64,000 nucleotides of DNA, from the NCBI RefSeq assembly GCF_048270245.1, contig NZ_JBLWTH010000008.1:43839-107838 (forward strand), written 5' to 3'. The first letter of the stretch is position 1, and each line of letters starts with the position of its first letter. Shown piece by piece: positions 3,967 through 63,281 of the stretch. The notes below the pieces were generated by a model. It had not been told where the DNA came from, did not search any database, and saw only the letters and a list, made by a program, of their open reading frames with translations. The position numbers were made by a program, and so were the translations under genes. Origin of the DNA: Kiloniella sp. (GTDB taxonomy: Bacteria > Pseudomonadota > Alphaproteobacteria > Kiloniellales > Kiloniellaceae).

Positions 3967-4025
3967 AATCACACCTAAAGGCCTTATCGTTTTTATTTAA
4001 CTATGTTCTATATTCAAAGATTTTA

Positions 4026-5147: not shown

Positions 5148-5216
5148 TCAATAAAAATCTATGGCGTACTATTAGTCCAAGCTTGAAGATAAAAGCAAAC
5201 GAAGTATTATTCGCCT

Positions 5217-5235
5217 AAGACATCATTTTATTTGA
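5217..5235. promoter_or_regulatory. Putative LysR operator (TCA-N7-TGA) in the divergent promoter
   Basis: AAGACATCATTTTATTTGA contains a T-N11-A dyad and is 16/18 identical to 7906-7923. Confidence 0.5.
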
Positions 5236-5254
5236 AGCTGATAATCGTACTCAC

Positions 5255-6157
5255 ATGGCATATCAACTCCCCCCTCTAAACTGGTTGCGCGCGTTCGAAG
5301 CCGCCGCCCGCTATAATAACTTCACGACCGCAGCCAAAGAGCTCAACCTCACCCCAGCTGCAGTTAGCCATCAAGTAAGGTCGCTTGAAAAAGAGCTGGA
5401 CTTCCTGTTATTCGAGCGACTAGCCCGCAGTTTAAAGTTAACCGACAAGGGAAGAGCTTACCTACCAGCAGTACGACGAGCGTTCGAAGATATATCAGTC
5501 TCAACGACTGGGCTGTTCGGCACCAAGGGCAAACAGACGATCAATATTCTCTGTACTGTTGCCTTTTCCGTTTCCTGGTTGGCACCAAGGTTAAAAGATT
5601 TCCTCACAAAGTATCCCGATATCAATATCAGATTACACACCGCGATCTGGACAGAATCACTCGATCACGACAACATTGATATTGATATTCGCAGCGGACA
5701 TGGTAACTGGCCTGGTTTTCACAGTCAGAAAATACACACAGAACCTTCAGTTCTCGTGGCAACACCAGACAATGTGAAGCTTCTAAAACAATCCATCGAG
5801 ACTGGCGATAAATCCCTTATCAATCACCTCTGTTGTGTCAGGATTATGGGTTGTGAAGGCCGCTGGCAAAAAATATTCGAGACTCACCTTAAAGGAGCAG
5901 ATCTCGAGGTAAATATCACAGTGGATACCTCTCTGAATTCGGTGCAGTTGGCATCCTCTGGCGCTTGCGTTTCACTTGTCTTAAAAGCCCATGCCCAACC
6001 AGATCTCGATAGCGGAAAATTAATGAGGGTTGTCGAGCAAGACTTCGATTACGATGATTCTCATTACTTGTTAACACCAATAAAAGACGAAAAATCTAAA
6101 CCTGAAAGTTTGTTATTTAGAAACTGGTTACTGGATCAAGCTCAGATAGAACAGTAG
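5255..6157 (+). CDS. LysR-family transcriptional regulator, GcvA-like
   Basis: LPPLNWLRAFEAAAR..FTTAAKELNLTPAAVSHQVRSLE HTH; divergent from the MR/MLE gene. Confidence 0.95.
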   Translation: MAYQLPPLNWLRAFEAAARYNNFTTAAKELNLTPAAVSHQVRSLEKELDFLLFERLARSLKLTDKGRAYLPAVRRAFEDISVSTTGLFGTKGKQTINILCTVAFSVSWLAPRLKDFLTKYPDINIRLHTAIWTESLDHDNIDIDIRSGHGNWPGFHSQKIHTEPSVLVATPDNVKLLKQSIETGDKSLINHLCCVRIMGCEGRWQKIFETHLKGADLEVNITVDTSLNSVQLASSGACVSLVLKAHAQPDLDSGKLMRVVEQDFDYDDSHYLLTPIKDEKSKPESLLFRNWLLDQAQIEQ

Positions 6158-6183
6158 CTTTAAACGCATAAACCTATAAGGAT

Positions 6184-7809
6184 TTATGCATCATCTAAAA
6201 CAAGGTCGGCCCCTTTTTCACCGACCATAATAGCGGCTGCATTGGTGTTTCCCGATGGCACGTTAGGGAAGATTGATGCATCAATCACGCGAAGGCCTTC
6301 AACGCCATGAACCCTGAGTTTGGGGTCAACGACAAACGTTTCTGGATCAGGCCCCATTCTACAGGTTCCTGAAGGATGGAAACAGGTCCAAGCGTAACCG
6401 CGAATATCGGCGATTAACTCTTCGTCTGTTTTACATTCTTTCCCCGGGCGAAACTCCTCGATGATAATATCTTTAAAGGTTTTGGTTTCGGCTAATTTTC
6501 TTAGATACTTCACACCTTCAAGCATCTCAGAAACATCTTCGTCGGTAGAAAGATAATTTGGCTTTATCATTGGTGGTTCAAACGGATCATTCGATTTAAT
6601 ATTTATCTCACCGCGCGAAGTCGGACGACAGTTTGTTAAACCCAGTTGAAAAGCAGAAAACGGATCAGGATTGAGCATCGGTCGCGTTCCCGCTGGTGCC
6701 CGCGTATAGCTAACAGGGGAGAAATAAAGCTGTATATTCGGCTGTTCCAAATCCGGTCGGGTTTTAATAAAGCCTCCTCCCTGATTGATACTCAGACTAA
6801 GAGGACCGCGGCGGAACAGGACATATTTCAGCCCGGCAACCAACTTGCCCCACCAAGAGTGCAATTCATCATTAAGGCTGGGGACAGTGCAGGAATAAAG
6901 ATAATCCATTCCGATATGATCTTGCAGATTTTGTCCAACGGCCGGGTTATCAACGACAATCGGTATATTGTGTTCATCAAGTAATGCCTTGGGACCAATC
7001 CCCGACAGTTGTAGCAATTGCGGGCTATTGATGGAACCACCACTCAGAATTACTTCTTTGTTGGCTGTAATTGTAGAAGTTTTTCCTTTGCGGACATACT
7101 CAACACCGACAGCTTTTTTTCCCTCAAAAAGAATTTTTGAAACGTGGGCATGGGTGACAAGTTTAAGGTTTTTACGCTTTAAGGCCGGATGTAGAAATGC
7201 TTTGGCTGCGGACTCACGAAAACCGTTGCGCGTTGTTGTCTGATAAAGACCGATGCCTTCCTGTTCAGCACCATTGAAGTTTTCATTATAAGCAAGACCG
7301 AGCTCTTGCCCTGACCGAATAAAGTTTTGGCAGAGGGGGTGTAAATCTTTTGAAACATCAGAAACATGCATTGGGCCATCCGTGCCCCGAAAGCCATCAT
7401 CCCCCAGTTGATTAACTTCTGATTTTTTAAAATAGGGCAGAACATCCCGATAACTCCATCCCGGATTTCCAAGTGCAGCCCAATCATCGTAATCCTTTTT
7501 ATGGCCCCGGATATACACCATGGCATTAATTGAGCTGGATCCACCAAGCACCTTTCCACGCGGCCAATAACTCTGTCTGTTTGCCGTACCTTCATCCGCT
7601 TCGGTCAGGTACATCCAGTTGACGGCTTTTTGGTAATATGTCTTTCCGTAGCCAATTGGAACTTGAACCCAAAAACGTTTATCGCTTCCTCCGGCCTCGA
7701 CAATCAAAACAGAATATTTGCCGCTTTCACTTAGGCGATTAGCTAAAACACAGCCTGCAGAACCTGCACCAACAATGATATAGTCAAAAGACTGCTTTTC
7801 TTTGCCCAT
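6184..7809 (-). CDS. GMC-family oxidoreductase (choline dehydrogenase-like)
   Basis: GAGSAG FAD motif, RGKVLGGSSSINAM, VGQNLQDH, HPSGTCRMG and NTNAA. Confidence 0.93.
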   Translation of the reverse strand: MGKEKQSFDYIIVGAGSAGCVLANRLSESGKYSVLIVEAGGSDKRFWVQVPIGYGKTYYQKAVNWMYLTEADEGTANRQSYWPRGKVLGGSSSINAMVYIRGHKKDYDDWAALGNPGWSYRDVLPYFKKSEVNQLGDDGFRGTDGPMHVSDVSKDLHPLCQNFIRSGQELGLAYNENFNGAEQEGIGLYQTTTRNGFRESAAKAFLHPALKRKNLKLVTHAHVSKILFEGKKAVGVEYVRKGKTSTITANKEVILSGGSINSPQLLQLSGIGPKALLDEHNIPIVVDNPAVGQNLQDHIGMDYLYSCTVPSLNDELHSWWGKLVAGLKYVLFRRGPLSLSINQGGGFIKTRPDLEQPNIQLYFSPVSYTRAPAGTRPMLNPDPFSAFQLGLTNCRPTSRGEINIKSNDPFEPPMIKPNYLSTDEDVSEMLEGVKYLRKLAETKTFKDIIIEEFRPGKECKTDEELIADIRGYAWTCFHPSGTCRMGPDPETFVVDPKLRVHGVEGLRVIDASIFPNVPSGNTNAAAIMVGEKGADLVLDDA

Positions 7810-43265: not shown

Positions 43266-43776
43266 GCCAGTTATAGAGTTGCTTGTATATTAAAGAACAT
43301 CGATTCACACGGTTGCGTCAATTTAAGCGGTAGTTGTAACACCAATGGTCTATCTAGACTTAAAGCAACGCTTACTCGATCTTTAGCAAAAGCCCGTTAC
43401 AGAACATCGCGAAAGCCAAGCGCATCGTTAACACATGCGCAGTCTTTTTTACACCTGAAATAAATGCACAAAAACACCAAATAGAAACAGAATAAACACA
43501 ATAAAATTATAGAAAAACAAAACCCTCAAACCCACAGAAAAGAATCCACACAAAAATTAATTACAAAAAATACAGTAAATGTGATTATTTTCTTATGATT
43601 ATTAACAATTACTGTAATTTAACGAAAAAATCATACAAATATATGTAGTTATTAAAACATTAATTCTATATAAAATTTTAAATACTGATAAGATATTTGA
43701 GTCATATTCCTCAACCATGGCCTGAGTGAGTTGCCTGAAAAGGCGGTGCCAATACGAAGAGCCCGAGGAGGCTAGA

Positions 43777-50536: not shown

Positions 50537-51331
50537 TTAAGGTCGGAAAACCTTCCACCCATTCGCTGTCTTCAACCAAAATGCGCCTTGGGTAATTGTT
50601 GTACGTCCCGTGGCAACATCAGTTTTTTCTTCAAACTGTATTGGTCCTTGATCTTGACTGTTTACAACCTGGTAAGCACGTCCGCCCAATATTTTATTCA
50701 CCTGTACATCTTTGCTTGATTTGATCGTGTATTTACCACTGAGCAATTCAGAAACCATACCCTTGATCATTTCAGGGGGCGGCCCACCAGCAAGAGGTAG
50801 ATCGGTAAACATCGGCTCAAAGAAAGCCATATAACCCTTGGCATCACCGGCCTCTGCGGCGTTACGCATCATCTCTATCGCTTCCAACAATCCTTCATCA
50901 GAGGTAATTTCACCTGTCAGATAACTGAAGGCAGGCTGGGTCTTGGCCTGAAAAATGGCGTTTTGTTCCCCTGCCCCTTGTTGATACAACTCAGCCAGTA
51001 CATTTTCATTCTTACCCGGCTCTTTGGGGAAATCGCCTTCACAAGCAACGAAAACCTCTGCACGCCCTGTGGCATCAGGGCTATCAGTAATCAATTCAAT
51101 CTTGAAATCATTATCCCCCTCTAACAACAGGTTTGCCGGAACAGTATTCGAGTGTGATCCCTTGTGATTTATCAGGATGACGTTATTCACCCTCACTCTT
51201 AATTCTGCTGCGTCACTTCCTTGAAGCGCAACCGCTGTTATTTCCTTACACGCGTGAGTAGGCATTGCAGTTAACCCCATTGATCCAATTGTAACCAGAG
51301 CCAAATAAACAGGCTTCATATTTTTGAGCAT
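50537..51331 (-). CDS. Exported hypothetical protein (beta-rich N-domain, possibly NTF2-like C-domain)
   Basis: Signal peptide ending THA; 264-aa ORF with SD and upstream ECF-like promoters. Fold is a pattern-based guess. Confidence 0.75.
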   Translation of the reverse strand: MLKNMKPVYLALVTIGSMGLTAMPTHACKEITAVALQGSDAAELRVRVNNVILINHKGSHSNTVPANLLLEGDNDFKIELITDSPDATGRAEVFVACEGDFPKEPGKNENVLAELYQQGAGEQNAIFQAKTQPAFSYLTGEITSDEGLLEAIEMMRNAAEAGDAKGYMAFFEPMFTDLPLAGGPPPEMIKGMVSELLSGKYTIKSSKDVQVNKILGGRAYQVVNSQDQGPIQFEEKTDVATGRTTITQGAFWLKTANGWKVFRP

Positions 51332-51433: not shown

Positions 51434-51493
51434 GTCGGACAGCACCCAATGTTTTGTTCACAACTAGGTCGGTCCAACACAAACAACAGTTCA
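51434..51493 (-). promoter_or_regulatory. Two tandem ECF-type promoters
   Basis: TGAACT-N16-CGAC (51493-51468) and TGAACA-N17-CGAC (51460-51434). Confidence 0.65.
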
Positions 51494-51549: not shown

Positions 51550-53160
51550 TTAACAAGTACCTTTGATCAATCCCGCACCGTAAATGGAATCTCGTCCGTG
51601 ATCACCCAAATCAATTACGGAAAAAGACAAGGCCCGAGATAATACCTGTCGTGACATTTTCGGATTATTTTTGAGGATAAGCGACGCAACAGCCAAGGCG
51701 TGTGGTGTCGCAAAGGATGTACCGGAAACATACCCGCCCTTATTCCCCGGCACAGCTGTCCAGATATCCACACCGGGGGCAGCATAATCAATAAAATCCC
51801 CCTGATTGGCATCGCGGTATATCTTGTGACGGGAATCAATGGCTGTAATTGAAAAGACCCCCTCTAAAGCTGCCGGGTAACTTACAGGTGCCTCAGGTCC
51901 TTGATTTCCAGCACTTGAGAAAACAAGGGCGCCTTTTTCTAGCGAAAGAACGAAACCTTTGTTTAACACCCTGTTCGGCACATCAGTACTAAGCGAAACA
52001 TTGATTAAACGCACATGATTTTCAAGCAGCCAATCCAGACCCTGTAATACCGCAACAGTACTCGCCAATTGATCCCCGGAATTGTTCAACCTTAAAACCA
52101 CCGCATTAAATAGCTGTGTTCCGGGTATCAGCCCTTGATAACCATTTTCTTGATTATTACCGATCAAGATAGATCCAATAGAAGTTGCATGACTAAGGTC
52201 AATCGTCTGATTACCCAAAAAATTACGCGATACAATGGCCTGTCCATCAAAAGCAGCGTGGTGCTGATCAATAGCACCATCCAGAAGACCAATGGGGAAA
52301 CCAAGCTGTGTTACCTGACACCCTTGATCCAGATCCCAACCAATCGCTTTTTGTGCATATAAACGAGGTTTTGCAGAAGACGTAAGATCATTATTAAAAT
52401 CAACCTCGGCATTTGGAAAAACAGTTCTCAGCTCTTGAATAACAGCCCCCGCGTTTGTAGATCGGGTCTGGATCAATACTGATTGTAAGGCATCAAGGTT
52501 GTAAACTTCGAGAACAGGTAAACGACGTCTTTGAAGTTCGGAACGAACTGCATTTTCCTGAGCACTATCAACCAGAATAATGACATCCTGTTCGATAGAG
52601 ACATCATTAACCACACTGGTTTCCGTTGGACAGATGCGTACACTTAAACCTGTTTTATCAAATACTTGGCGAGTACTCCTCTTAAAGAAAACAAGGTCAT
52701 ATTTTGTATTTAAATCAATACCCTTTTTAGGTAAATAACTTGAGATCAGAGTATTCTTTTTATTTAGAATATCCAACTCTATCAAATCATGAGTATTACT
52801 TAATCCCAAGCGATAGCTATTTGGAATATCGTCAAAGTTTTTGCCCTGAATGGTTAATATTGTGCCCGGGCGAACGCAGTTTGCTCTTATCCCGGAAAAG
52901 ATAATCTCATCAGATCGATTACCTGTCGGTCGGGACGTAACCGGATCATCAGTTACGGTCCGGGACTTTCCTGTAGATGTCGACGCCCCCGGTATTGGCC
53001 GAGTATTGGGTGTTGCCCTCGTACCTGGAGTGCCAGGTATCGGTGTCGTACCTGGTTCTTCACTCGCGGGATCAGCAGATGTTTGTGCGGGTAAATCCTG
53101 CGGTATTCCAATTGAAAGCAGCAAGAAAACGACGAGAGTTAGAGAATGGCGCAACATCAC
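51550..53160 (-). CDS. S8 subtilisin-family serine peptidase with signal peptide, P/T-rich linker, IPT-like domain and prodomain
   Basis: Triad LLDG / HATSI / SGTSFATP; oxyanion SAGN; IDYAAPGVDIW; DLGDHGRD..YGAG. Confidence 0.92.
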   Translation of the reverse strand: MMLRHSLTLVVFLLLSIGIPQDLPAQTSADPASEEPGTTPIPGTPGTRATPNTRPIPGASTSTGKSRTVTDDPVTSRPTGNRSDEIIFSGIRANCVRPGTILTIQGKNFDDIPNSYRLGLSNTHDLIELDILNKKNTLISSYLPKKGIDLNTKYDLVFFKRSTRQVFDKTGLSVRICPTETSVVNDVSIEQDVIILVDSAQENAVRSELQRRRLPVLEVYNLDALQSVLIQTRSTNAGAVIQELRTVFPNAEVDFNNDLTSSAKPRLYAQKAIGWDLDQGCQVTQLGFPIGLLDGAIDQHHAAFDGQAIVSRNFLGNQTIDLSHATSIGSILIGNNQENGYQGLIPGTQLFNAVVLRLNNSGDQLASTVAVLQGLDWLLENHVRLINVSLSTDVPNRVLNKGFVLSLEKGALVFSSAGNQGPEAPVSYPAALEGVFSITAIDSRHKIYRDANQGDFIDYAAPGVDIWTAVPGNKGGYVSGTSFATPHALAVASLILKNNPKMSRQVLSRALSFSVIDLGDHGRDSIYGAGLIKGTC

Positions 53161-53774
53161 TTCCCACCACTTTCCCCGCCGTTACGTTGTACGGTTTCAA
53201 CCAGATTTTTGTGCGCTTGAAGCTTGGCGATAACAGCTTCAGGATCTTTTGATACAGCCAGCTTATAAACGCCCAGAGATGAAGGGCCATCAATAATACG
53301 AGCATCAACAGCCAATAAAAGTTCGCGAATATTTTCTTCACGTGCCTCTGGAACAAAAGTAACCGACAGCACTGGACCACGGATATAGGCGGCATTACCA
53401 CCACTCGCAGCAACCAAGTCTTTGTTGTTTTGCCACAAGGGCACAACATAAGCCGTCTGGACAAGCAACATAAAACAGGCTGCAACCGCTGCTATCCGCC
53501 ACACCTTATTTTTGATATTATCATTTTGAGGTAAACGTCCGCCCCGTGCTGTTTGCTCTTTTGCAAGATCACGTTGCAAACGCTTCAGACCAAGCTGACC
53601 AGGCGAGCTTTCATGTGTTTGATTTTGAACTTCGTCTCTCAGGTTTTCCAGAAAAGCACATTCATCTCGAAGAGCTTTATCTTGGCTCAAAGCTTTTTTA
53701 ACCGCCTCAAGATCTTCCCCCTGAAGACTACCATTCACATAGAATGGTAAGAGTTCTGAGATTTCCTTTTTCAT
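53157..53774 (-). CDS. Transmembrane anti-sigma factor
   Basis: ELLPFYVNGSL anti-sigma-domain start without HxxxCxxC; one TM (IAAVAACFMLLV); directly follows the ECF gene. Start ATG 53774. Confidence 0.85.
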   Translation of the reverse strand: MKKEISELLPFYVNGSLQGEDLEAVKKALSQDKALRDECAFLENLRDEVQNQTHESSPGQLGLKRLQRDLAKEQTARGGRLPQNDNIKNKVWRIAAVAACFMLLVQTAYVVPLWQNNKDLVAASGGNAAYIRGPVLSVTFVPEAREENIRELLLAVDARIIDGPSSLGVYKLAVSKDPEAVIAKLQAHKNLVETVQRNGGESGGK

Positions 53775-53776
53775 GT

Positions 53777-54328
53777 TCAGCCTCCCATACGGTTGGACAG
53801 GCAACGTTTCATTGCCTGTTTGGCATGGAACATACGGGTCTTAACGGTGTTTTCCGGGCAGTCTACAATCAGTGCAATTTCTGAATAAGGAAGGTCTTCG
53901 AAAAATGCCAGTTGCATCACGGCACGGTGTACTGCTTTTAAGGTATCAAGACAGAACTTGATATGATCACTTTTTTCAGCAGTCAAAAGACATGCCATAG
54001 CATCCGGACTATCATCCGCCGTTTCAGGAAAGTTGTCGCTATCCATTGGTATGTCTGTTTTCTTACGCATCCGATCCACCGTCTTGAAGTATGCTATTCC
54101 AAATAGCCAGGTTGATACTTTAGAACGCCCCTCAAAGGTTTCGGCTTTACGCCATACCTCTAAAAAGGTTTCATTTAGTATGTCGGCGGCTTCGAATGAA
54201 TCGTTCAATTTTGATTTAATAAAAAGATACAGTCGTTTTTCAAACAGATGATAAAAATCAGCAAAGGCGGTTTCATCGCCTTTGCTGACACGTTGAAGAA
54301 GAGAATATGCTGTATCGTTTTCGGTCAT
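53777..54328 (-). CDS. ECF RNA polymerase sigma factor
   Basis: Region 2 (ADILNETFLEVWRKAETFEGRSKVSTWLFGIA) and region 4 (LPYSEIALIVDCPENTVKTRMFHAK). Confidence 0.95.
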   Translation of the reverse strand: MTENDTAYSLLQRVSKGDETAFADFYHLFEKRLYLFIKSKLNDSFEAADILNETFLEVWRKAETFEGRSKVSTWLFGIAYFKTVDRMRKKTDIPMDSDNFPETADDSPDAMACLLTAEKSDHIKFCLDTLKAVHRAVMQLAFFEDLPYSEIALIVDCPENTVKTRMFHAKQAMKRCLSNRMGG

Positions 54329-54337
54329 TAATAATCC

Positions 54338-55531
54338 CTATGGCATATACAACAATTGACGTGGTGAGGAGCCGATAACGCGCCCACTTTTATCAAAAGC
54401 ACGTAATCGCCAATCATAACTTTCCCCTGAATTCAGATTGTCCAAGGAAAAAGCAGAAAGTTTAAGTTTCAAATCCTGAGCGGAAACAACTTTTCCAGAA
54501 ACAACTTCGTCATGTCCCGGAGTAAGTATTTCTACCTGATAGGCAAGTGCACCGGGGACATTTTCCCACGCGAAAACTGTATCCTGATTGACACGGGCAC
54601 CGTTTCCTGGGCTCAAGGCCGTCAAATTATCAGCTGGCCTTTTTGTCGAAGTTTCGAGAACAAAATACCTCAACACAGGTAATTCGGTAATGCCTTCAGC
54701 ATTTTCGACACTAAAGGTTAGCAAATAAAGGCCATTTTTTGTTGTCGGTAATGCCGGGCTTACTATCCTCGTTCTGCCCTGCCCCGAACTCACAACCTGT
54801 TGTCGCACAACCTGTAGAATACGACCTCGCGCACTTCCAAGACTTGCTGTGGGGTCAATAATACGCCATTCGCCCTTTAGAAGACCGCTACTTCTGAAAT
54901 TTATCTCCGCAATGGCTCGTCTCGTATCTCCTTTGGCGATAACGTCTGTTCTAGCATCATTATCAAAACGAAGATCAATACGATTTATACTGAGCGCTCC
55001 CCCCTGACCAGAACCAGCAAAAACAGAAAGTCGCGCCAAGCCTGTTGTTTGCGTATCTGTAAAGGTTCTGGATATCAAAACCGATCCCGCGGGGGCTTCG
55101 GCTATTTTTCGAGCAAGAGCTGAAGAGATTGAGAGAACCTCACTAAAGCGCAACGTTTCACTTTGGGCAGGATTCAAAGTTGACTGTCGAAGCAAAGTAC
55201 CACCAAGCGTCGCGACATTGGTGCCATTAATTTGAAGAATAGCATTTGTCGAACTAACCGGAACTGTTGCCGGAGCTGTTGGCTCTAGCCTTGTAACATT
55301 CCATGTTAACGAAAGGGCAGATGCACCTTTGACATGAACATTAGCGCGTTTGGGCGTCACCGTAACCGAAGTTACATTCGCCTCTGCTATCATTGGGACG
55401 GTCAGTCCAGCTCCGGATATAATACCCGAAACAAAAACCGCTTTAATAGCTAAGCGAAAATGGCGCTTTAACGCGCAAAACCATGTAGGCCTGATACTCT
55501 GTTTCATTTTGGGCACTATCTGCGTTTCCAT
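54338..55531 (-). CDS. Exported multi-Ig/FN3-like hypothetical protein
   Basis: Signal-like segment ending AEA; FN3-like C-terminus (FAWENVPGALAYQVEI...YDWRLRAFD). Start uncertain because it overlaps the upstream gene. Confidence 0.75.
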   Translation of the reverse strand: METQIVPKMKQSIRPTWFCALKRHFRLAIKAVFVSGIISGAGLTVPMIAEANVTSVTVTPKRANVHVKGASALSLTWNVTRLEPTAPATVPVSSTNAILQINGTNVATLGGTLLRQSTLNPAQSETLRFSEVLSISSALARKIAEAPAGSVLISRTFTDTQTTGLARLSVFAGSGQGGALSINRIDLRFDNDARTDVIAKGDTRRAIAEINFRSSGLLKGEWRIIDPTASLGSARGRILQVVRQQVVSSGQGRTRIVSPALPTTKNGLYLLTFSVENAEGITELPVLRYFVLETSTKRPADNLTALSPGNGARVNQDTVFAWENVPGALAYQVEILTPGHDEVVSGKVVSAQDLKLKLSAFSLDNLNSGESYDWRLRAFDKSGRVIGSSPRQLLYMP

Positions 55532-57530
55532 TGAATTCCTCCATTGATCCTCTTAGGGCCAATGCCAAACCAGGGCGATTGGTGCGAGGTTGAAGGAAAG
55601 TCCATTCTACCTCGCTATTAACGATATGACTATCAGATGAGTCGCCACTACCATTCGCAAGGTTCAAATTATAATCAAAATTTAACTCAACTTTTTCTGG
55701 AACAAGTTCCGCTGTCGCCCCTAAATACAGGTTTGTGCTGAAACTGTTTTTATTTGTATCAAGGTCTTCAAACACGCCAAACTGGGTACCACCGTTAAGT
55801 TGCAGTCTATCAGAAACAGTCCAGCCAACATCCAAACCCGTCAAATTGTTAACTGTGTCGCTGGAAATATTTGTATAATCATCAAAACGTGAATAGCTAT
55901 GCGATAAAGACCAATACCATACATCGTAGCTTGATCCTCCGCCCAATGTAATTGACGAAGATAAATTATCTGTATCTCCGCCCTCATAACCATTTGGCGT
56001 TTTAACACGTTCCAAACTGGCAAAGTAACTGTTCATATATAAATAAGGGGTTCCTAACCATTCCCTTGATCCAGTCTGTTGATCAAAAGAATAGTTCATC
56101 CCAAAATCAATACTTTTCAAGCGATCAGTTGGAACGTTCGCGAGACCATCTACATTGTTGGTTTCATGCAAGGCATAGATATTCGCAGATAAAGCGCCCC
56201 AATAAAGATTACTGAAAGCAGTATAGGCATCGCGATCTGATATCATGCCAGGGTTAGCCAGACTTTCAAAGAAAGTATCAACACGGTCATAGCCAAAACC
56301 AACATCAATATTAAGTAGGTCATCACCAATGACGGGCCCTTCATCAAACAATCGATGATCTATCAGTAGTGATACAGCGTCGCTGCTGTCTTTGGGGGCA
56401 TCACCATGATCTCCATCTTGATCAAATAGTGTATGTGCATATTGCGCTTTTAATCTTGTTCTTTGATGACCAAAGCTCTTTTCAACACCGATCCCCCAGC
56501 CAGAACCAGATGCAGAACTATCCAGATCTGAAAGACCAATACCGCTTCCCTCCCCCAAACCATCATAATAGGTGCCCGTTAATTTCAACGCGTCCACATC
56601 AGTTGCAAAGGGTTTTACCGACAGACTAACACCTTTAACACGGTTTTCCGTACTGTTAAGACCAGTCATATCAGCCGCCCCAGAAACGGACTCAGCCCCG
56701 AATGCAAAGCCTTGTGCCTCTACCCTGCTATCACTTGTCCCAATTCGCGCAGAAACACCCCGACGATAAAAGTCTGAAACAAGGAGATTTTCCAGCCCTG
56801 TATCATGGTGCCCCAGTGAAAAGCCACCTGTCAGAGTATCTCCCTGATAATCTGCATTTACGTCATATTCACCCAAATCGATCGTACGTTCTGTCTGCGC
56901 AAAATCGACATCACTTTGTACTAAATAATTCGCATGGGCATCGACCGTCCATTTTCCAGCGGTAAAACCTGAGTTAACATCGCCACTACCCGATAAAGTA
57001 GAACGATTGGTTGCATGTCCAATATTTTGCTGCACGACACGTCGACTGAATTCGGTGAGCGTATCAGCCCGAAAATAAGCCGAACGAAGTAAACGTTCAG
57101 CCATTTCAATCTCAGGGTTGCTTGCACTTAAATCAGAAACATTACCAGCCGATCCTGTGCCATCGCCAGTTATAGTAAAAGTCCATTTCTGCCTTATCTC
57201 TGACGAACCGTCAGGGTTTAGCATTACCAATTTCAATGTGTGTTCATTTCCCTCAAGGGCTTGAAGTGGCTTGTATATAAAATCAACCCCATCAAGGGAA
57301 AGAAGTGACGTAATATCAATACCGTCCAACTCGACACCAAGTTGTGTCAGAGTTATCACATCCAAATCATCCGGAAGATCTATTCGTATTTTTGCATCAG
57401 ATGTTTCTGGTGGTGTAAAATCTGCAATCCAATCGGCCAAGCTTGATTGAACGCATAAAAACGGCAAAAATATTGCCGCTATCAGCGTACCCAAACCATA
57501 TCGATTTTTTTTTCGTTTTTTCAAACGCAC
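55443..57530 (-). CDS. Probable outer-membrane beta-barrel protein with N-terminal Ig-like domain
   Basis: GTG 57530 gives a Lys-rich signal ending SLA; Ig-like segment (VELDGIDIT...HTLKL...WTFTI); many alternating aromatic/Gly strands; terminal aromatic residue (FSLSY). Confidence 0.75.
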   Translation of the reverse strand: MRLKKRKKNRYGLGTLIAAIFLPFLCVQSSLADWIADFTPPETSDAKIRIDLPDDLDVITLTQLGVELDGIDITSLLSLDGVDFIYKPLQALEGNEHTLKLVMLNPDGSSEIRQKWTFTITGDGTGSAGNVSDLSASNPEIEMAERLLRSAYFRADTLTEFSRRVVQQNIGHATNRSTLSGSGDVNSGFTAGKWTVDAHANYLVQSDVDFAQTERTIDLGEYDVNADYQGDTLTGGFSLGHHDTGLENLLVSDFYRRGVSARIGTSDSRVEAQGFAFGAESVSGAADMTGLNSTENRVKGVSLSVKPFATDVDALKLTGTYYDGLGEGSGIGLSDLDSSASGSGWGIGVEKSFGHQRTRLKAQYAHTLFDQDGDHGDAPKDSSDAVSLLIDHRLFDEGPVIGDDLLNIDVGFGYDRVDTFFESLANPGMISDRDAYTAFSNLYWGALSANIYALHETNNVDGLANVPTDRLKSIDFGMNYSFDQQTGSREWLGTPYLYMNSYFASLERVKTPNGYEGGDTDNLSSSITLGGGSSYDVWYWSLSHSYSRFDDYTNISSDTVNNLTGLDVGWTVSDRLQLNGGTQFGVFEDLDTNKNSFSTNLYLGATAELVPEKVELNFDYNLNLANGSGDSSDSHIVNSEVEWTFLQPRTNRPGLALALRGSMEEFNGNADSAQNETEYQAYMVLRVKAPFSLSY

Positions 57531-57612
57531 GCCTGATATTCTCCAAGGCAGACTTCGTACAATTTTACACCAAGATACTATAGAAATCAGTAATTTGAAC
57601 AATAATCCAAAG

Positions 57613-57628
57613 TGTATCAATTGTATCA
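57613..57628. promoter_or_regulatory. Direct-repeat box copy 1 (putative response-regulator site)
   Basis: TGTATCAATTGTATCA; near-identical copies at 59294 and 63266. Confidence 0.55.
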
Positions 57629-57656
57629 GTAAAAGCTGAATTCATTTTCAACGACA

Positions 57657-57695
57657 TAAGAAAAGAGCAGCAGGACCTTATTTTAGACCCTGCTA
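57657..57695 (-). terminator. Rho-independent terminator after the exported-protein gene
   Basis: Minus strand GCAGGGTCT-AAAATA-AGGTCCTGC then TGCTCTTTTCTT; stem includes two G-U pairs. Confidence 0.6.
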
Positions 57696-57713
57696 CATTT
57701 ACTTCACTTTCGT

Positions 57714-59063
57714 TTATTGAGGTGTCTGAATTATCAGGCGTTTGGGTCTTTCAGTTTCTTGTGTTGCTTTACCAAGGGGAGCCCTTTGCGGCTTTTTCTG
57801 CACAGTACCACGTGTATCTGGCATAGTGTCGCTCCCCTGATTTTGATAACCACCCAGTTTGGCATTACTACCATTTACAGTTACCTGAGGTGTACAACGA
57901 TGCTTGAAAGTCGCTGAACCAAACTCTTTCCAAGGCCCATAACTATCACTGTTTTGATCTTTGACTTGAGCTTCAATCGTCATCGCATGTTCATAGGTTT
58001 TATTGATTGTGTTCCACCATTTGAATTGTTGATGATTGTACATTTTTTCAATCAAGGGATAATCAAAATCAAAGTGCCTGTTTATCTGGCTCTCTGAATC
58101 GTAACTGCCCAAATAGATGTTTGGCAGTACAAAATTTCCTTCACTGTTTTTCACATCAATTTTAAAACGGACCGTTCCCTTACCTGCCCCTTTGTAGTTC
58201 ACACGAATTTTAGGGTTAGGCGTCCCTTCGGAACATTTTCCAATATGATGTGGCATGTTTGGCTGAAAAGTTGCCTGATTTAAAAGCAAAGATTGATTGT
58301 TGTTATACTGTGGATTATTGCCCACCTGTCCCAATTGAGCATTCAAAATAGGCTTATCGGTTATAGCGGAGTCACCTTTATATTTGACTTGAATAGTAAA
58401 ATTTTTGGTCTCAAAGCCAGCTTTCCATGGGCTGTGACCTGGCGAGAGATATTTTCTGCACCACCCCGCAAGAGAAACAGGCCTTTGCAGAACGATTTCC
58501 TGATCGTTTTTATAAAAATCTGCTTTCGATCCACCACCTTGTAGGTGGGATTGTAATTTTTTATTGATTTCTTCCAAGGGATCAACGCGAACAGCCGGAT
58601 GGCCATTTTTAATTTGATTTAAAGGAACTGTGAAACTCTCATCACCATCCGTCCCCTCTGTTACCCACTTACCCAAGCCAATGCGGCTTTTATGACTAAC
58701 TTCATAGGAACTTTGATACAGTGCTGCATTATCATTGATGTCATCAACAAACATACCGAGAGGGCCAAAATAAATCTTGGCCTCTTTAAAATCTATTTTT
58801 TTATCATCGCCACACTGTACAAAACCATCGGCTTCGATCTCAATGGATGATTCCTGTATCTGTAAATTGACATTGTTTACAGACTTACTTCCTGAAGTAT
58901 TCTTGACATTAATAACCGCGGCATACCCCGGAAAGTTCAGATCTACATTCTGAACGTACTCAGAGTTTCCACTAGATGCCGCAAAGACAGTGCTTGAAAT
59001 GATAGCACTCGTCCCAAGTGCAGCAGCGCTTACGCCAAGAAGTAACTTTTGAAACTTATTCAT
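57714..59063 (-). CDS. Exported beta-rich hypothetical protein (~449 aa, 4 Cys)
   Basis: AGGAG SD before ATG 59063; Sec signal ending VFA; own promoter and terminator. Confidence 0.85.
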   Translation of the reverse strand: MNKFQKLLLGVSAAALGTSAIISSTVFAASSGNSEYVQNVDLNFPGYAAVINVKNTSGSKSVNNVNLQIQESSIEIEADGFVQCGDDKKIDFKEAKIYFGPLGMFVDDINDNAALYQSSYEVSHKSRIGLGKWVTEGTDGDESFTVPLNQIKNGHPAVRVDPLEEINKKLQSHLQGGGSKADFYKNDQEIVLQRPVSLAGWCRKYLSPGHSPWKAGFETKNFTIQVKYKGDSAITDKPILNAQLGQVGNNPQYNNNQSLLLNQATFQPNMPHHIGKCSEGTPNPKIRVNYKGAGKGTVRFKIDVKNSEGNFVLPNIYLGSYDSESQINRHFDFDYPLIEKMYNHQQFKWWNTINKTYEHAMTIEAQVKDQNSDSYGPWKEFGSATFKHRCTPQVTVNGSNAKLGGYQNQGSDTMPDTRGTVQKKPQRAPLGKATQETERPKRLIIQTPQ

Positions 59064-59121
59064 TTTGTTCTCCTGTATTGTCACTCACTGTTTCGAGTAA
59101 CCCGATGTTGTCGTTACAGGG

Positions 59122-59150
59122 TCTGACGCAATAAGAACGGGAAAGGTTCA
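59122..59150 (-). promoter_or_regulatory. ECF-type promoter
   Basis: TGAACC-N16-CGTCAGA with AT-rich upstream sequence, about 60 nt before the start codon. Confidence 0.7.
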
Positions 59151-59293
59151 AAATAAATAATTTTTATTTCAGATAGTCCCATTTAAGCTATCTCGTTGTT
59201 CTCAATACAGACACCATGATGTACAGAAATTCTATCCCGTTCATCGATGAAAAATAATTTAAACGATTTTGGTATCTGCATTATTTCAGGAAA

Positions 59294-59309
59294 AGTATCG
59301 ATTGTATCA
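59294..59309. promoter_or_regulatory. Direct-repeat box copy 2
   Basis: AGTATCGATTGTATCA, 14/16 identical to copy 1. Confidence 0.45.
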
Positions 59310-59369
59310 AACAGAAGAATGGCACTGTGATATGACCTGCCTTAAACCCAGAGCATAAATAATTAAATT

Positions 59370-59395
59370 TGAACCTGGCTGACCGTCCCTACGAC
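59370..59395 (+). promoter_or_regulatory. ECF-type promoter, divergent
   Basis: TGAACC-N16-CGAC preceded by an AT-rich tract. Confidence 0.6.
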
Positions 59396-59443
59396 CAACT
59401 TCTATCAACGAATTGGAACAACGATTAAACAGGACATCAGAAA

Positions 59444-59665
59444 ATGCCTATTACTCACCTTCAGGATCGCCCCCGAAAAACAGAATTACACATGGGCAAT
59501 ACTATAGTCTTTTCTGACCTATTTGATGATATTATTCCCACCTCCTCCTCTCATAAGGACACACCTTCCTCATTTGGAAACCACAGACAGTTACTTGATA
59601 ATAATACACAACTCTATCTTGCAGCGAACTTGATAAACCTTCACGAAGCACCCATTAATCTGTAA
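59444..59665 (+). CDS. Possible small hypothetical protein (73 aa)
   Basis: AGGA SD and an ECF-like promoter upstream; no recognisable motif. Confidence 0.25.
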   Translation: MPITHLQDRPRKTELHMGNTIVFSDLFDDIIPTSSSHKDTPSSFGNHRQLLDNNTQLYLAANLINLHEAPINL

Positions 59666-59697
59666 ACTTTTCATAGATATGAAAGTAAAGGCTTCCT

Positions 59698-60183
59698 ATG
59701 CTTAAAAGCCTCATATTTATCGGGTTACTTGTAAGTTCAGTTGGTTTTCACTCCATCAAAGGACATGCCAACGCGCAAAAACCTGCCCTGAAAGATCTAA
59801 GCCAAGTATGTGAAGCCGACAGGTACAACCAACCTATCGGGGAATTTTCCGTCGATGTTTATTGCGATGATACCCCCATAATCGGCCCCTATAGCCTCAC
59901 CCAAAGGACATGGCAAGGCGGTGACTGGGCTTTTTCTATCACCAGTTTTATGTGGGGAAATGACAGAAAATCACTTTACGTTGCAACAGAAGGATATAAT
60001 GGAACAGGCAAAGCCTATTACCTAGATATCGAGACACAAACCAGCCAAGAAGTTTGGTCAACTTCTCCCGGTGACTGTGGCAGCGTATTAACAGGAATGA
60101 ATGATAAGAACATCACGCTAGCAACAATTCCCTGCGATGGAAAACAACCCCGAAACATAGAGATCACGATACCTAAGAATTAG
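59698..60183 (+). CDS. Exported hypothetical protein (161 aa, 4 Cys)
   Basis: Signal peptide ending ANA; beta-propeller-blade-like segment (FMWGNDRKSLYVAT...AYYLDI). Confidence 0.65.
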   Translation: MLKSLIFIGLLVSSVGFHSIKGHANAQKPALKDLSQVCEADRYNQPIGEFSVDVYCDDTPIIGPYSLTQRTWQGGDWAFSITSFMWGNDRKSLYVATEGYNGTGKAYYLDIETQTSQEVWSTSPGDCGSVLTGMNDKNITLATIPCDGKQPRNIEITIPKN

Positions 60184-60207
60184 TTCTGATTTATTCTTTA
60201 TACCCAA

Positions 60208-60915
60208 TTACCCAAAGACATAACCTATTCCGCGAACGGTACGTATGATTTCTGGTTTTGTCGGATTAACTTCAATTTTACGCCGAAGCCGGGAAATACG
60301 AAGATCGATGGATCGGTCAAAGGGTTCCCACCCTCTATCATGAGCTTGTTCAAGTAATTGATCCCGATTTAAAACACGCCCCCTATTTTCAGAAAAAACA
60401 CGTAAAAGACTAAATTCCATCGCTGTCATGGCAATTTCATTATTATCAGCATCAAGAAGCTGCGCACTATCCAGATCAAGTCTGCACACGCCAAACTGAA
60501 TTGATCCTTTGGTTTTAGCAGATTTTTGCTCTGACAAAGCGCTCGGTATTCTTCGTAAAGTCGCTTTTATTCTTGCTTCCAACTCTCTCAAATCCACAGG
60601 TTTGGCCAGATAATCATCAGCCCCCATTTCCAGTCCGACAATACGGTCAACGACTTCAGATGCCGCCGTCAACATTATAACCGGCACGTCAGAGTTATTT
60701 CGTAAGTTACGAAGGGCAGTCAAACCATCTTCACCGGGCATATTAATGTCTAGGATTACCAAATCAGGAGAATGCTTTTCGGTAAACTTGTGCATCGCTT
60801 TTGCATCGGCGGCTTCAACTGTTTCATAGCCACGATCACTTAAATATTCGGCAACCATTTCACGTAAATGTGGTTCATCATCACAGACAATAATTTTGTA
60901 ACCATTCGCACTCAT
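60208..60915 (-). CDS. OmpR-family response regulator
   Basis: CDDE, ILDINMPG, LTA, ADDYLAKP; wHTH with FDRSIDLRISRLRRKIE and IRTVRGIGY. Confidence 0.96.
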   Translation of the reverse strand: MSANGYKIIVCDDEPHLREMVAEYLSDRGYETVEAADAKAMHKFTEKHSPDLVILDINMPGEDGLTALRNLRNNSDVPVIMLTAASEVVDRIVGLEMGADDYLAKPVDLRELEARIKATLRRIPSALSEQKSAKTKGSIQFGVCRLDLDSAQLLDADNNEIAMTAMEFSLLRVFSENRGRVLNRDQLLEQAHDRGWEPFDRSIDLRISRLRRKIEVNPTKPEIIRTVRGIGYVFG

Positions 60916-60921
60916 GTAAAA

Positions 60922-63171
60922 CTAGGTCCTTGTTTTTTGGATAAGTGATCGCATCAAATTGACAAGCTCTTCCGGAGAAACAGGTTTATCCAGATGCAAG
61001 CATCCAGAATTTTCGATAAAATCGGCAACTTCCGGACTCATTGAATCTCCAGTCACAAAAGCAGTTTTTTTAGCCATATCAGGAAATTCAGCCGTCATAT
61101 GCTGTAAAAACTCTATACCATTCATACCGGGCATTTTCACGTCACTTAAAATTGCGGTGTATGAACGTGCTTTTAATTTTTTCAGGGCATCTTTAGCTGA
61201 ATTGGTAACAGTCACTTGATAGCCGTCTTCACTCAAAATTTCGCTAATTAAATCAGCGACATCGACCTCATCATCAACAACCAGTACTCCTTGCTTTAAA
61301 TGTTTTTTATCCGGAATATCAGGAACGTTTTTATTTTCATCTGTTACTTCCGAAACTTTCATTCGCACTGTAAAGCAAGTTCCTCCTTTACCTGAGGATC
61401 GGAAAGACAGGTTTCCGTGGTGAGCATCAACAATACGATGGCAAAAAGCAAGCCCAACACCTGTACCACTTCCAACATCTTTTGTTGTAAAAAAAGGTTC
61501 AAAAACTCTGGCCTGTATCTCTTTGGGAATACCTACGCCGTTATCAATAACATCAACAACGACTTCGTTTAATAAGTCATCAAACGAGGAACGAATAACG
61601 AGTTTCCCCTCTTTTCCTTTCTCAGATAACGCATGTTCTGCATTTACAATCAAATTGGTAAAGACTTGTGCCATTTGATCATGGTCGGCATCGACAAAAG
61701 GCAAATCCTTCGCCAATGACAAAGATACCTCTGCGCCAGATACCCTCACCCCATAACCAGCAACATCCATGGCGACTTCGATTGCTTCGTTCAGATTACA
61801 ATTTTCTATCTGCATCGGACGCTGTCTGGCCATAGCCAAAAATGTTTTAACAATTTTGGCGCAACGCTCTGCTGCCATTGCAATTCGATCTACTCTTCGC
61901 TTTACCTCGGGATCATCCGTTTTATCCTGAAGCATCAAGGCATAACCTACGACAATAGAAAGTGGATTATTCAGTTCATGGGCAACACCAGCAAGTAACC
62001 CGCCTAAGGCTGATATCTTTTCATTCTGATGTGCGATTTCCTTCTGCTCTTCCAGCTCTTTTTGCATCTGAATTTGTTCGGTGATATCTCGTGTTGACGA
62101 GACAATAACATCCTCACCTTTGTAATCAGTCACTCGGGCAGACGTCAGACCTTGCATAATGGTGCCATCTCGCCGGCGAAACTGCACCCTATAATCATCC
62201 AATACACCCGTCGGCAACAAAGCCTTGAGATAATTTTCACGGTCTTGAGGTTTAATGAAAAAGCTTTTTGCCGTTTCTATATCACCAAACCGATCGCGAG
62301 AAGCAGGTGGAAAATATATGATTTTTCCATCCGAAACACGGGATACCAAAAAGTTCGCAGGACAAGCCTCAACAATTTTATGAAGCAACATATCTGCTTC
62401 ACGGCTCGCCTCTTCAATTTTCTTTTGCTCGGTAATGTCCTTGATCGTAACCAGATAACCGCCAAATCCGGTTTCATGTGAAGAACTTGATAAAATACGT
62501 CCATCAGAACGCTCTATTTCATGGTCCTTTTTATAACTTGAAACACCTTTGATAATTCTCTCAATCGTTTTCTCGGCTTCGTTTGTGTTCTTGATTATAG
62601 ATTTGTGATCACATGTATTTTGGTATCCAGTGATCATCCCCTGCATAATTTCTTCTATAGGACGCCCCCGCCGCAACTTATCATCAGGTAAGGCAATAAC
62701 ATCGGCATACTTTTTATTTGATAAGACGAAACACAAATCAGAATCATAAAGTGCAACAGCAATATCCAATGATTGAATAATATCGAAAAGCACTTCAGGC
62801 GCAGATACTTTTACGTCTGCATTCTGGTTCTCAAGTAAAACTTTTAGATAACAGGTATTTCCTTCTGATGTTGTGTAACGTGATAATGAAAACTTATCAC
62901 CAACAGTATCTTGCCAAACAAAGCCGCGATCAGAAGACTGCCATTTACGTATAACTGTTTGTATGAGGCTAGAATTTACTGACTTTCCAAAGGATTTTTC
63001 CAAAACAAAATGCTCGGCCTTGGTCTTAAGTAAGGCTTTCCGCTCTTCGTCACTCAAGGTCACAAAACAATCATTGATTGTTAGTAAGCGTCCATCTTGA
63101 TCAAAGGTCGCAAAACCAGTCTCCATTTGAGATCCCTTTTGTATTACCGCCTCAAAAACAGACGTCTCCAC
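60922..63171 (-). CDS. Cytoplasmic hybrid sensor histidine kinase (three PAS-like domains, HisKA, HATPase, REC)
   Basis: AHELNNPL, NLIVNA, DNGVG, FEPFFTTK, GTGVGL; C-terminal VVDDE..LSDVKMPG; no evident TM segment. Confidence 0.93.
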   Translation of the reverse strand: METSVFEAVIQKGSQMETGFATFDQDGRLLTINDCFVTLSDEERKALLKTKAEHFVLEKSFGKSVNSSLIQTVIRKWQSSDRGFVWQDTVGDKFSLSRYTTSEGNTCYLKVLLENQNADVKVSAPEVLFDIIQSLDIAVALYDSDLCFVLSNKKYADVIALPDDKLRRGRPIEEIMQGMITGYQNTCDHKSIIKNTNEAEKTIERIIKGVSSYKKDHEIERSDGRILSSSSHETGFGGYLVTIKDITEQKKIEEASREADMLLHKIVEACPANFLVSRVSDGKIIYFPPASRDRFGDIETAKSFFIKPQDRENYLKALLPTGVLDDYRVQFRRRDGTIMQGLTSARVTDYKGEDVIVSSTRDITEQIQMQKELEEQKEIAHQNEKISALGGLLAGVAHELNNPLSIVVGYALMLQDKTDDPEVKRRVDRIAMAAERCAKIVKTFLAMARQRPMQIENCNLNEAIEVAMDVAGYGVRVSGAEVSLSLAKDLPFVDADHDQMAQVFTNLIVNAEHALSEKGKEGKLVIRSSFDDLLNEVVVDVIDNGVGIPKEIQARVFEPFFTTKDVGSGTGVGLAFCHRIVDAHHGNLSFRSSGKGGTCFTVRMKVSEVTDENKNVPDIPDKKHLKQGVLVVDDEVDVADLISEILSEDGYQVTVTNSAKDALKKLKARSYTAILSDVKMPGMNGIEFLQHMTAEFPDMAKKTAFVTGDSMSPEVADFIENSGCLHLDKPVSPEELVNLMRSLIQKTRT

Positions 63172-63265
63172 TTAATTCTCTTTCGTGTTCGAGCCACAAT
63201 GTTCTAATCCACATGATTATAGTAGAAAATGAAGGTATCTGTAAGATGTCTAAGCATTTGTAATT

Positions 63266-63281
63266 TGTATCAATTGTAACA
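63266..63281. promoter_or_regulatory. Direct-repeat box copy 3, upstream of the kinase gene
   Basis: TGTATCAATTGTAACA, 15/16 identical to copy 1. Confidence 0.55.

Follow-up and report, generated by a model that had tools for sequence, protein, structure and literature searches.

We analysed a 64,000-nt stretch of Kiloniella sp. DNA (contig NZ_JBLWTH010000008.1, positions 43,839 to 107,838; the whole stretch is called the window below) in which a 16-bp box stands upstream of three transcription units of one locus, which encodes a hybrid histidine kinase, an OmpR-family response regulator, an extracytoplasmic function (ECF) sigma factor and exported proteins. We concluded from sequence comparisons that the box is very probably a high-affinity operator of the adjacent OmpR-family regulator. 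The full cascade, from the two-component system through the ECF sigma factor to the exported proteins, appears probable as well, at a somewhat lower level of confidence. A sequence-only reading of the window had reported 16-mers at 57613, 59294 and 63266; all three are found there, each intergenic and in one common orientation. Because the neighbouring genes all lie on the minus strand, the boxes are read here in gene sense, in which the consensus is TGATACAATTGATACA, i.e., two TGWWACA heptamers with 2 nt between them and a period of 9 bp. The boxes and the two genes proposed to control them are:

57613-57628: box 1; the plus strand reads TGTATCAATTGTATCA, gene sense (minus strand, 57628 to 57613) is a perfect TGATACAATTGATACA; upstream of the barrel-FN3-sigma-antisigma-S8 operon, ~83 nt from the barrel GTG (57530)
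59294-59309: box 2; the plus strand reads AGTATCGATTGTATCA, gene sense (minus strand, 59309 to 59294) TGATACAATCGATACT; upstream of the 449-aa gene, ~231 nt from its ATG (59063)
63266-63281: box 3; the plus strand reads TGTATCAATTGTAACA, gene sense (minus strand, 63281 to 63266) TGTTACAATTGATACA; upstream of the kinase-regulator operon, ~95 nt from the kinase GTG (63171); proposed autoregulatory site
60922-63171, minus strand: soluble hybrid histidine kinase with PAS_7, PAS, HisKA and HATPase_c domains and a C-terminal receiver; no hydrophobic segment
60208-60915, minus strand: OmpR-family response regulator (receiver and winged helix), 6 nt downstream of the kinase; proposed box-binding protein

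The regulator has the N-terminal receiver (PF00072, 1.3e-31) and C-terminal winged helix (Trans_reg_C, PF00486, 1.2e-22) of the OmpR/PhoB family. A shuffle test confined to the window gave a weak result (three matches where 0.85 were expected; 4 of 100 shuffles reached as many). In the whole 4.07-Mb genome only seven sites lie within two mismatches of the 16-mer, and three of the seven fall inside this 5.7 kb; likewise, GTATCNATTGTA occurs six times in the genome and three of these copies are here. By a hand calculation that leaves orientation and intergenic position uncounted, the chance of finding three of seven sites within 5.7 kb is ~7e-5. Scored with a weight matrix, the three boxes reach 28-32 bits vs 19 bits for the next best site in the genome, a test that is partly circular, as the matrix was built from genus sites including these boxes and their orthologues. 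The whole-genome clustering is decisive and settles the repeat as far from chance. Second-tier genome sites (15-19 bits), which lie upstream of cobalamin adenosyltransferase, ferredoxin-reductase-like, solute-binding-like and APS-kinase/methyltransferase genes, had no conservation support and were left out of the regulon. Elsewhere in the genome (G000:C3:481973-482000, locus L106), three heptamer-like units with a 9-bp tandem period (AGTACAAT TGATACAAT TGACATTT) stand directly upstream of a solute-binding-protein-like gene.

Phylogenetic footprinting in related genomes, a check suggested by the sequence-only reading, showed that the box is conserved at the three orthologous promoters and follows the regulator orthologues into other orders. 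Within the genus it is present at each of the same three promoters in G001, G003, G006, G007 and G011, and also in G009 (partial) and G002 (rearranged). In the intergenic alignments the box forms an invariant island, even in comparison with G001, whose barrel protein is 41% identical; box 3 is present in six congeners and varies at its third base alone (T/G). The pattern TGDTACAATHGATAC has three matches per genome (four in G011) in the nine congeners with the regulator and none in the four congeners without it (G004, G005, G008 and G012), where the best regulator match is a 41-45% identical paralogue. A reversed control pattern gave no match in any congener. G004 and G005 keep a diverged ECF locus together with its ECF-type promoters (sigma ~79%, FN3 ~56% and 449-aa protein ~47% identical), but they have no kinase/regulator pair, and no box was found upstream of their 449-aa or barrel genes. 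Since these two genomes keep the ECF locus without the pair or the boxes, the boxes track the two-component system and not the ECF locus.

Some congeners have a rearranged locus. In G010 (L110, G010:C8:82000-101000, about 3900-7400) it is cut by an ISL3 transposase and IS21 (IstA/IstB), and through these insertions most of the barrel gene and the ECF module have been lost and the kinase is reduced to its receiver tail. What survives is the regulator, the 449-aa gene and two boxes. G010 was considered as a case of boxes without a kinase and rejected: because the locus was recently broken by insertions and the regulator is still there, it is not an independent test. The kinase-regulator operon of G002 (L112/L016, G002:C77) lies with its box downstream of the 264-aa gene and not upstream of the 449-aa gene, and the kinase match has four stop codons and may be a pseudogene. 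An extra box in the opposite orientation is found nearby in G006 and G011.

The loci outside the genus and a test at the level of the order are stronger evidence than the counts within the genus. Among public plasmids and genomes, the regulators closest to this one come from Alphaproteobacteria: Ruegeria TM1040 and Chachezhania (71% identity), other Rhodobacteraceae (63-67%), Novosphingobium (61%) and Aminobacter (60%). Each of them adjoins a PAS hybrid kinase in an otherwise unrelated neighbourhood, and the kinase and regulator are the sole genes common to these loci. Of the ten loci with a regulator identity of 54.5% or more, eight have a box (at most two mismatches from TGAWACAATTGAWACA); of the 73 loci with paralogues at most 50% identical, none does (Fisher p = 1e-9). 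Seven of these eight loci have a sense-oriented box ahead of the kinase gene at a distance of 20-135 nt, an arrangement in favour of conserved autoregulation. In the Novosphingobium plasmid a longer operon includes the kinase as an internal gene, and the boxes are upstream of other genes. This plasmid (N. pentaromativorans pLA3, L022) has four boxes, at 2270, 3091, 9691 and 12749, which precede an OsmC gene, an oxidoreductase operon, a pyridoxal-phosphate (PLP) enzyme pair and a hypothetical gene; the oxidoreductase operon continues into the truncated-haemoglobin, cyclase, kinase and regulator genes. Aminobacter has further boxes before DUF1344 and DUF1127 genes, which, like the boxed genes of the plasmid, are lineage-specific.

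For the order-level test, 61 genomes of the window's order were scored first for presence of the regulator and second for the pattern YGAWACRAHYGAWAC. The mean was 3.9 matches per genome in the seven out-of-genus genomes with the regulator vs 0.47 in the 47 genomes without it, where the matches were mostly GC-rich variants and chance-like. In six of the seven a match lies within 6.5 kb of the regulator gene. In G044, a regulator-bearing genome of the order, the 9-bp-period pattern has 11 exact matches spread over nine contigs, and from this count the regulon may be much larger in some lineages.

The CAATTG core gives the box the look of a dyad. Variants that have lost the core retain both heptamers (TGATACA-TC-TGATACA in L023 and TGAAACA-AA-CGAAACA in L021), so the box is a direct repeat, and the dyad reading (TGTTNCAATTGNAACA) was rejected. 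Head-to-tail repeats, which the box has, are the rule for operators of the OmpR/PhoB family (PMC3960148). A literature search for the exact box strings returned nothing relevant.

OmpR and FxkR are the nearest known comparators, better than VirG. The Salmonella OmpR motif from ChIP-seq, confirmed by electrophoretic mobility shift assay, is TGTWACAW (PMC3586657), and the left half of box 3 is this very word. FxkR, an OmpR-type regulator, is paired with the soluble hybrid kinase hFixL, and its K-box, GTTACA-N4-GTTACA, ends at -62 of the fixK start site (PMC7888657, PMC4999443). Read directly, the pRL9 K-boxes consist of two TGTTACAAAC-type decamers with a 10-bp period. The hFixL-FxkR systems (Rhizobium etli, R. 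leguminosarum/johnstonii 3841 and S. meliloti) resemble the present one in having a soluble hybrid PAS kinase with a C-terminal receiver, an OmpR-type regulator and a head-to-tail TGTTACA-type tandem ~60-75 nt upstream of the start site (predicted here); in both, the regulator would switch on a second-tier factor, which is FixK there and, as we propose, an ECF sigma factor here. They differ in the period of the operator, 10 bp in the K-box vs 9 bp in GWWACA-N3-GWWACA, with N3 rather than N4 in the three boxes and in all orthologous boxes, and in their targets, which here have nothing to do with oxygen respiration. The regulator is 45% identical to FxkR9, and the best match of FxkR9 in this genome is another gene; the regulator is thus not an FxkR orthologue. 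The kinase is not hFixL, since it is 26% identical to hFixL9 and lacks the haem-PAS motif (the PYRDAHDGY segment aligns to a non-matching segment). Among curated family models, the regulator scores best with OmpR, at 236 bits and below the cut-off of 331 (NF007005), and it reaches no NCBIfam equivalog cut-off; the partner of OmpR is EnvZ, whereas the partner here is a cytoplasmic hybrid PAS kinase. Because the half-site matches both TGTWACAW and the K-box half-site, we regard it as the OmpR/FxkR word arranged with a period of 9 bp.

OmpR half-sites are spaced 10 bp apart. The remark in the sequence-only reading that a 9-bp repeat period is unusual for this family was well founded, as the half-site recurs at the loci of related regulators with a period of 10 bp. 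In a scan of 83 regulator loci for N3 vs N4 between the half-sites, loci with a regulator at least 54.5% identical gave 11 N3 and 1 N4 matches and those of more distant paralogues 4 N3 and 76 N4, the latter mostly 50-130 nt upstream of the regulator gene. These 76 GWWACA-N4-GWWAC direct repeats, spread over 73 loci (L029-L102; mostly at about 6830-6950, with the gene at 7001), come from Burkholderiales, Pseudomonas, Rhizobiaceae, Xanthomonadales and other hosts. Their position suggests that the paralogues widely autoregulate through a K-box-like 10-bp tandem.

The maximum-likelihood regulator tree groups all N3 loci in a single clade of 12 (support in the SH-like approximate likelihood-ratio test, SH-aLRT, 82), which is nested in a clade of 15 with support of 98; all other loci are N4 or unscored, and FxkR9 is placed outside the N3 clade on a long branch. 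Because the N3 loci form one clade on the tree, the 9-bp period is a derived trait of that clade. The clade has 17 fixed residues that are rare in other regulators. V107-D108-L109 replaces F-x-P after the conserved Lys-Pro of the receiver (F107 is present in 71 of 71 other regulators), and H192, D193, W196 and R206 are clade-fixed around the recognition helix. The V-D-L change and the changes in the loop before the recognition helix are candidate specificity determinants. One possible account, which we put forward tentatively, is that the clade, which would be a widespread alphaproteobacterial one, kept the ancestral OmpR/FxkR half-site TGWWACA and shifted the spacing from 10 to 9 bp, in which case spacing, not base recognition, would insulate it from paralogues in the same cell. 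If true, this would be a natural example of specificity evolving via dimer geometry.

The remaining genes of the locus are as follows:

57714-59063, minus strand: 449-aa exported protein of no known family, with a signal peptide
51550-57530, minus strand: five-gene operon barrel-FN3-sigma-antisigma-S8 (assigned by Pfam and NCBIfam)
55443-57530, minus strand: barrel-like exported protein
54338-55531, minus strand: Ig/FN3-like protein
53777-54328, minus strand: ECF sigma factor (PF04542 and PF08281)
53157-53804, minus strand: anti-sigma factor with a fervidolysin-prodomain-like C-terminus and a single hydrophobic segment (residues 103-124)
51550-53160, minus strand: S8 subtilase
50537-51331: 264-aa gene

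The sigma factor has sigma-70 regions 2 and 4 only and is followed by a single-pass anti-sigma factor, the make-up of an ECF sigma/anti-sigma module. G006 and G007 (L013 and L017) have, between the 161-aa and 449-aa genes, an inserted gene for a paralogue of the 449-aa protein (26-28% identity), with its own ECF-type promoter in front.

All promoter positions and start sites given here are predictions from sequence. The elements associated with the three boxes are:

57667-57696, minus strand: strong intrinsic terminator (12-bp stem and T-run) between the 449-aa gene and box 1; the stem is kept in congeners
57577-57582, minus strand: -10 element TATAGT of the barrel operon, conserved
63216-63245, minus strand: predicted sigma-70-like promoter CTTACA-18-TATAAT of the kinase operon (10/12 consensus matches; -10 position roughly conserved)
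63234-63240, minus strand: third half-site AGATACC of the kinase promoter, 41 nt downstream of the start of box 3 and abutting the -35
59271-59277, minus strand: third half-site AGATACC of the 449-aa promoter, at +32 relative to the start of box 2, with TGATA kept in congeners
59257-59262, minus strand: candidate -10 TTAAAT of a putative distal, box-dependent promoter of the 449-aa gene, with conserved T.A.A.T columns

The TATAGT of the barrel operon, described in the sequence-only reading as lying about 30 nt downstream of box 1 with a poor -35, is exactly 30 nt downstream, and there is no good -35; the tandem is nearer to the -10 at this promoter. Box 3 sits 20 nt upstream of CTTACA-18-TATAAT. 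Congener versions of the distal -10 of the 449-aa gene read TATAAT, GATAAT or TAGAAT. In the out-group promoters a GAWAC core is found 41-42 nt downstream of the box start for 11 of 16 boxes (binomial p about 1e-23), and a CTAGAA-like -10 follows ~11 nt beyond this third half-site. The kinase promoter of the window shares this layout (AGATACC at +41, then TATAAT), and the 449-aa promoter has a 9-bp-shorter version of it (AGATACC at +32, then the conserved T.A.A.T). Several OmpR tandem sites reportedly extend toward the -35 region in a similar way, as Harlocker and co-workers are said to have described in 1995.

ECF-type promoters were predicted at four positions:

59125-59150, minus strand: TGAACC-N16-CGTC, proximal promoter of the 449-aa gene; conserved, and retained in G004/G005
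59370-59395, plus strand: TGAACC-N16-CGAC, toward the 161-aa exported-protein gene; also in G009, with equivalent divergent pairs in other congeners
51468-51493, minus strand: TGAACT-N16-CGAC, upstream of the 264-aa gene, with an AT-rich tract upstream
55641-55666, minus strand: internal TGAACC-N16-CGAC in the 3' end of the barrel gene, ~110 nt upstream of the FN3 gene

From their conservation and position we infer that the ECF sigma factor would read TGAAC-N16-CGWC promoters. Seven genomes have the promoter of the 264-aa gene with an unchanged TTGAAC -35 and an unchanged CG in the -10, and six of the seven have the full CGAC. The internal motif is invariant in all congeners, and it is nearly identical in G004/G005 despite a barrel protein that is ~35% identical; it is a plausible autoregulatory promoter of the sigma factor. 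Nucleotide conservation in the last ~250 nt of the barrel gene is far above that of the rest of the gene, and because this whole stretch of coding DNA is unusually conserved, the internal promoter is kept as putative. A GAAC-N17-CGTC motif at 43295-43320 (plus strand), which is intergenic and ~430 nt upstream of a 2247-aa RTX/VWA adhesin gene, matches the promoter of the 449-aa gene in spacing and in its TTGCGTCA ending; it is not claimed as a promoter.

The cascade that we propose would start with the PAS hybrid kinase, which would phosphorylate the regulator, and the phosphorylated dimer would bind the tandem upstream of weak sigma-70-type promoters, with predicted box centres at about -51 (barrel operon and distal 449-aa promoter) and about -64 (kinase operon). 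At two promoters the extra half-site next to the -35 region probably helps to recruit RNA polymerase. There would be three outputs: the regulator would activate the kinase-regulator operon from which it is itself expressed, the barrel-FN3-ECF sigma-anti-sigma-S8 operon would be transcribed, and the gene of the 449-aa exported protein would receive direct input. Once released from its anti-sigma factor, the ECF sigma factor would read TGAAC(C/T)-N16-CG(A/T)C before the 449-aa, 161-aa and 264-aa genes and inside the 3' end of the barrel gene, amplify itself and then drive the exported-protein genes. The 449-aa gene would thus be in a feed-forward arrangement, as both a regulator box and an ECF-type promoter feed it. 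Box sequence, genome statistics, conservation and co-occurrence with the regulator clade are the data on which this scheme is built, and from these we infer the binding, the sign of regulation, the start sites and the pairing of sigma factor and promoters. Much the same wiring, in which the regulator autoregulates and activates the barrel-FN3-sigma-antisigma-S8 operon and the ECF sigma factor then switches on the exported products, had been suggested in the sequence-only reading, and every comparative test that we ran is in its favour.

Of the described systems in which a two-component regulator stands above an ECF module, as is proposed here, PhoB-vreAIR comes closest. In Pseudomonas aeruginosa, PhoB (OmpR/PhoB family) turns on the vreAIR operon, which encodes an ECF sigma factor, an anti-sigma factor and a receptor-like protein, and PhoB also has sites at promoters targeted by the vreAIR sigma factor (PMC4971064). 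The repeats of Pho boxes are 7 bp long, recur every 11 bp and adjoin the ECF -35; unlike them, box 2 is separated from the downstream ECF-type promoter by ~145 nt and appears to act on a different promoter, of the sigma-70 type.

Several observations weigh against the proposed scheme. The kinase has a receiver domain, and because no HPt domain was seen the phosphotransfer route is uncertain. The distance between box 2 and the ECF-type promoter of the 449-aa gene raises the question of how the two inputs combine. The distance from box to -10 is not uniform (centres at about -51 vs about -64), and a search of the barrel promoter for a third half-site found only a degenerate TGTTCAA at +27, which is not claimed. 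Two loci whose regulators are 55-57% identical, L027 and L040 (partial), have no box. The congeners are closely related and the genus counts are therefore not independent.

Among other explanations, the one that deserves most attention is that the regulator binds the boxes and acts at some of them as a repressor or dual regulator, for example in negative autoregulation of the kinase operon. The Rhizobium K-box provides a precedent, repressing fxkR9 while activating fixK9b (PMC7888657), and the third half-site abuts or overlaps the -35/spacer region of the kinase promoter. However, all three boxes are upstream of the predicted -35 in sense orientation, the -35 elements are poor, as is typical of activated promoters, and the activating K-box, which ends at -62, has the same distal geometry; we consider repression improbable. 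A still less likely explanation is that the box belongs to another DNA-binding protein, either a paralogous OmpR-type or a global factor, and that its nearness to the two-component system is incidental. The TGWWACA half-site is indeed common to OmpR- and FxkR-like paralogues, and at least two further regulators encoded in this genome show 43-46% identity to FxkR. This sits poorly with the loss of the boxes in congeners that lack the present regulator, with the 10-bp period used in the paralogue loci (76 vs 4), with the mapping of the 9-bp sites onto a single regulator clade, and with the distant genomes, where only this kinase and regulator are common beside the box.

It is highly improbable that the system is a VirA/VirG homologue with a VirG-type vir box. 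The sequence-only reading had noted that the core of box 3 matches an Agrobacterium VirG box at 10 of 12 positions; the count is right, but as evidence it does not hold. The boxes do match the published pattern RTTDCAWWTGHAAY at 12, 11 and 13 of 14 positions (PMC11351099), the CAATTG core and an OmpR-family regulator are common to both systems, and the kinase has a C-terminal receiver, as VirA does. Yet in this genome the same pattern is matched perfectly at 14 sites and with one mismatch at another 231, and because this makes 245 sites at 13/14 or better the likeness carries no weight. In addition, the regulator scores 176 bits vs a VirG cut-off of 344 and the kinase 130 vs a VirA-like cut-off of 647, and the vir box has dyad symmetry while the box here is a direct repeat; VirA/VirG identity was rejected on these grounds. 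Least probable of all, to the point of being negligible, is that the three copies are a chance or non-functional short repeat. The weak shuffle result in the window speaks for chance, but three findings speak against it: the genomic clustering of the sites, their perfect conservation at unchanged positions where protein identity is 40-90%, and their co-occurrence with the regulator across orders. We concluded that the box is best explained as the operator of the adjacent OmpR-family regulator.

These results yield a testable operator, regulon and wiring diagram for an uncharacterised two-component system of several alphaproteobacterial orders. In the present locus the system would head a cascade into an ECF sigma/anti-sigma/subtilase module and exported proteins without known function. 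The box lets the regulon be predicted in any genome that bears the regulator clade, as exemplified by the redox and haemoglobin-cyclase genes of the Novosphingobium plasmid and the 11 sites of G044. The 9-bp/10-bp split between sister clades that use one half-site offers a ready system for the study of how OmpR-family paralogues avoid cross-talk at the DNA level.

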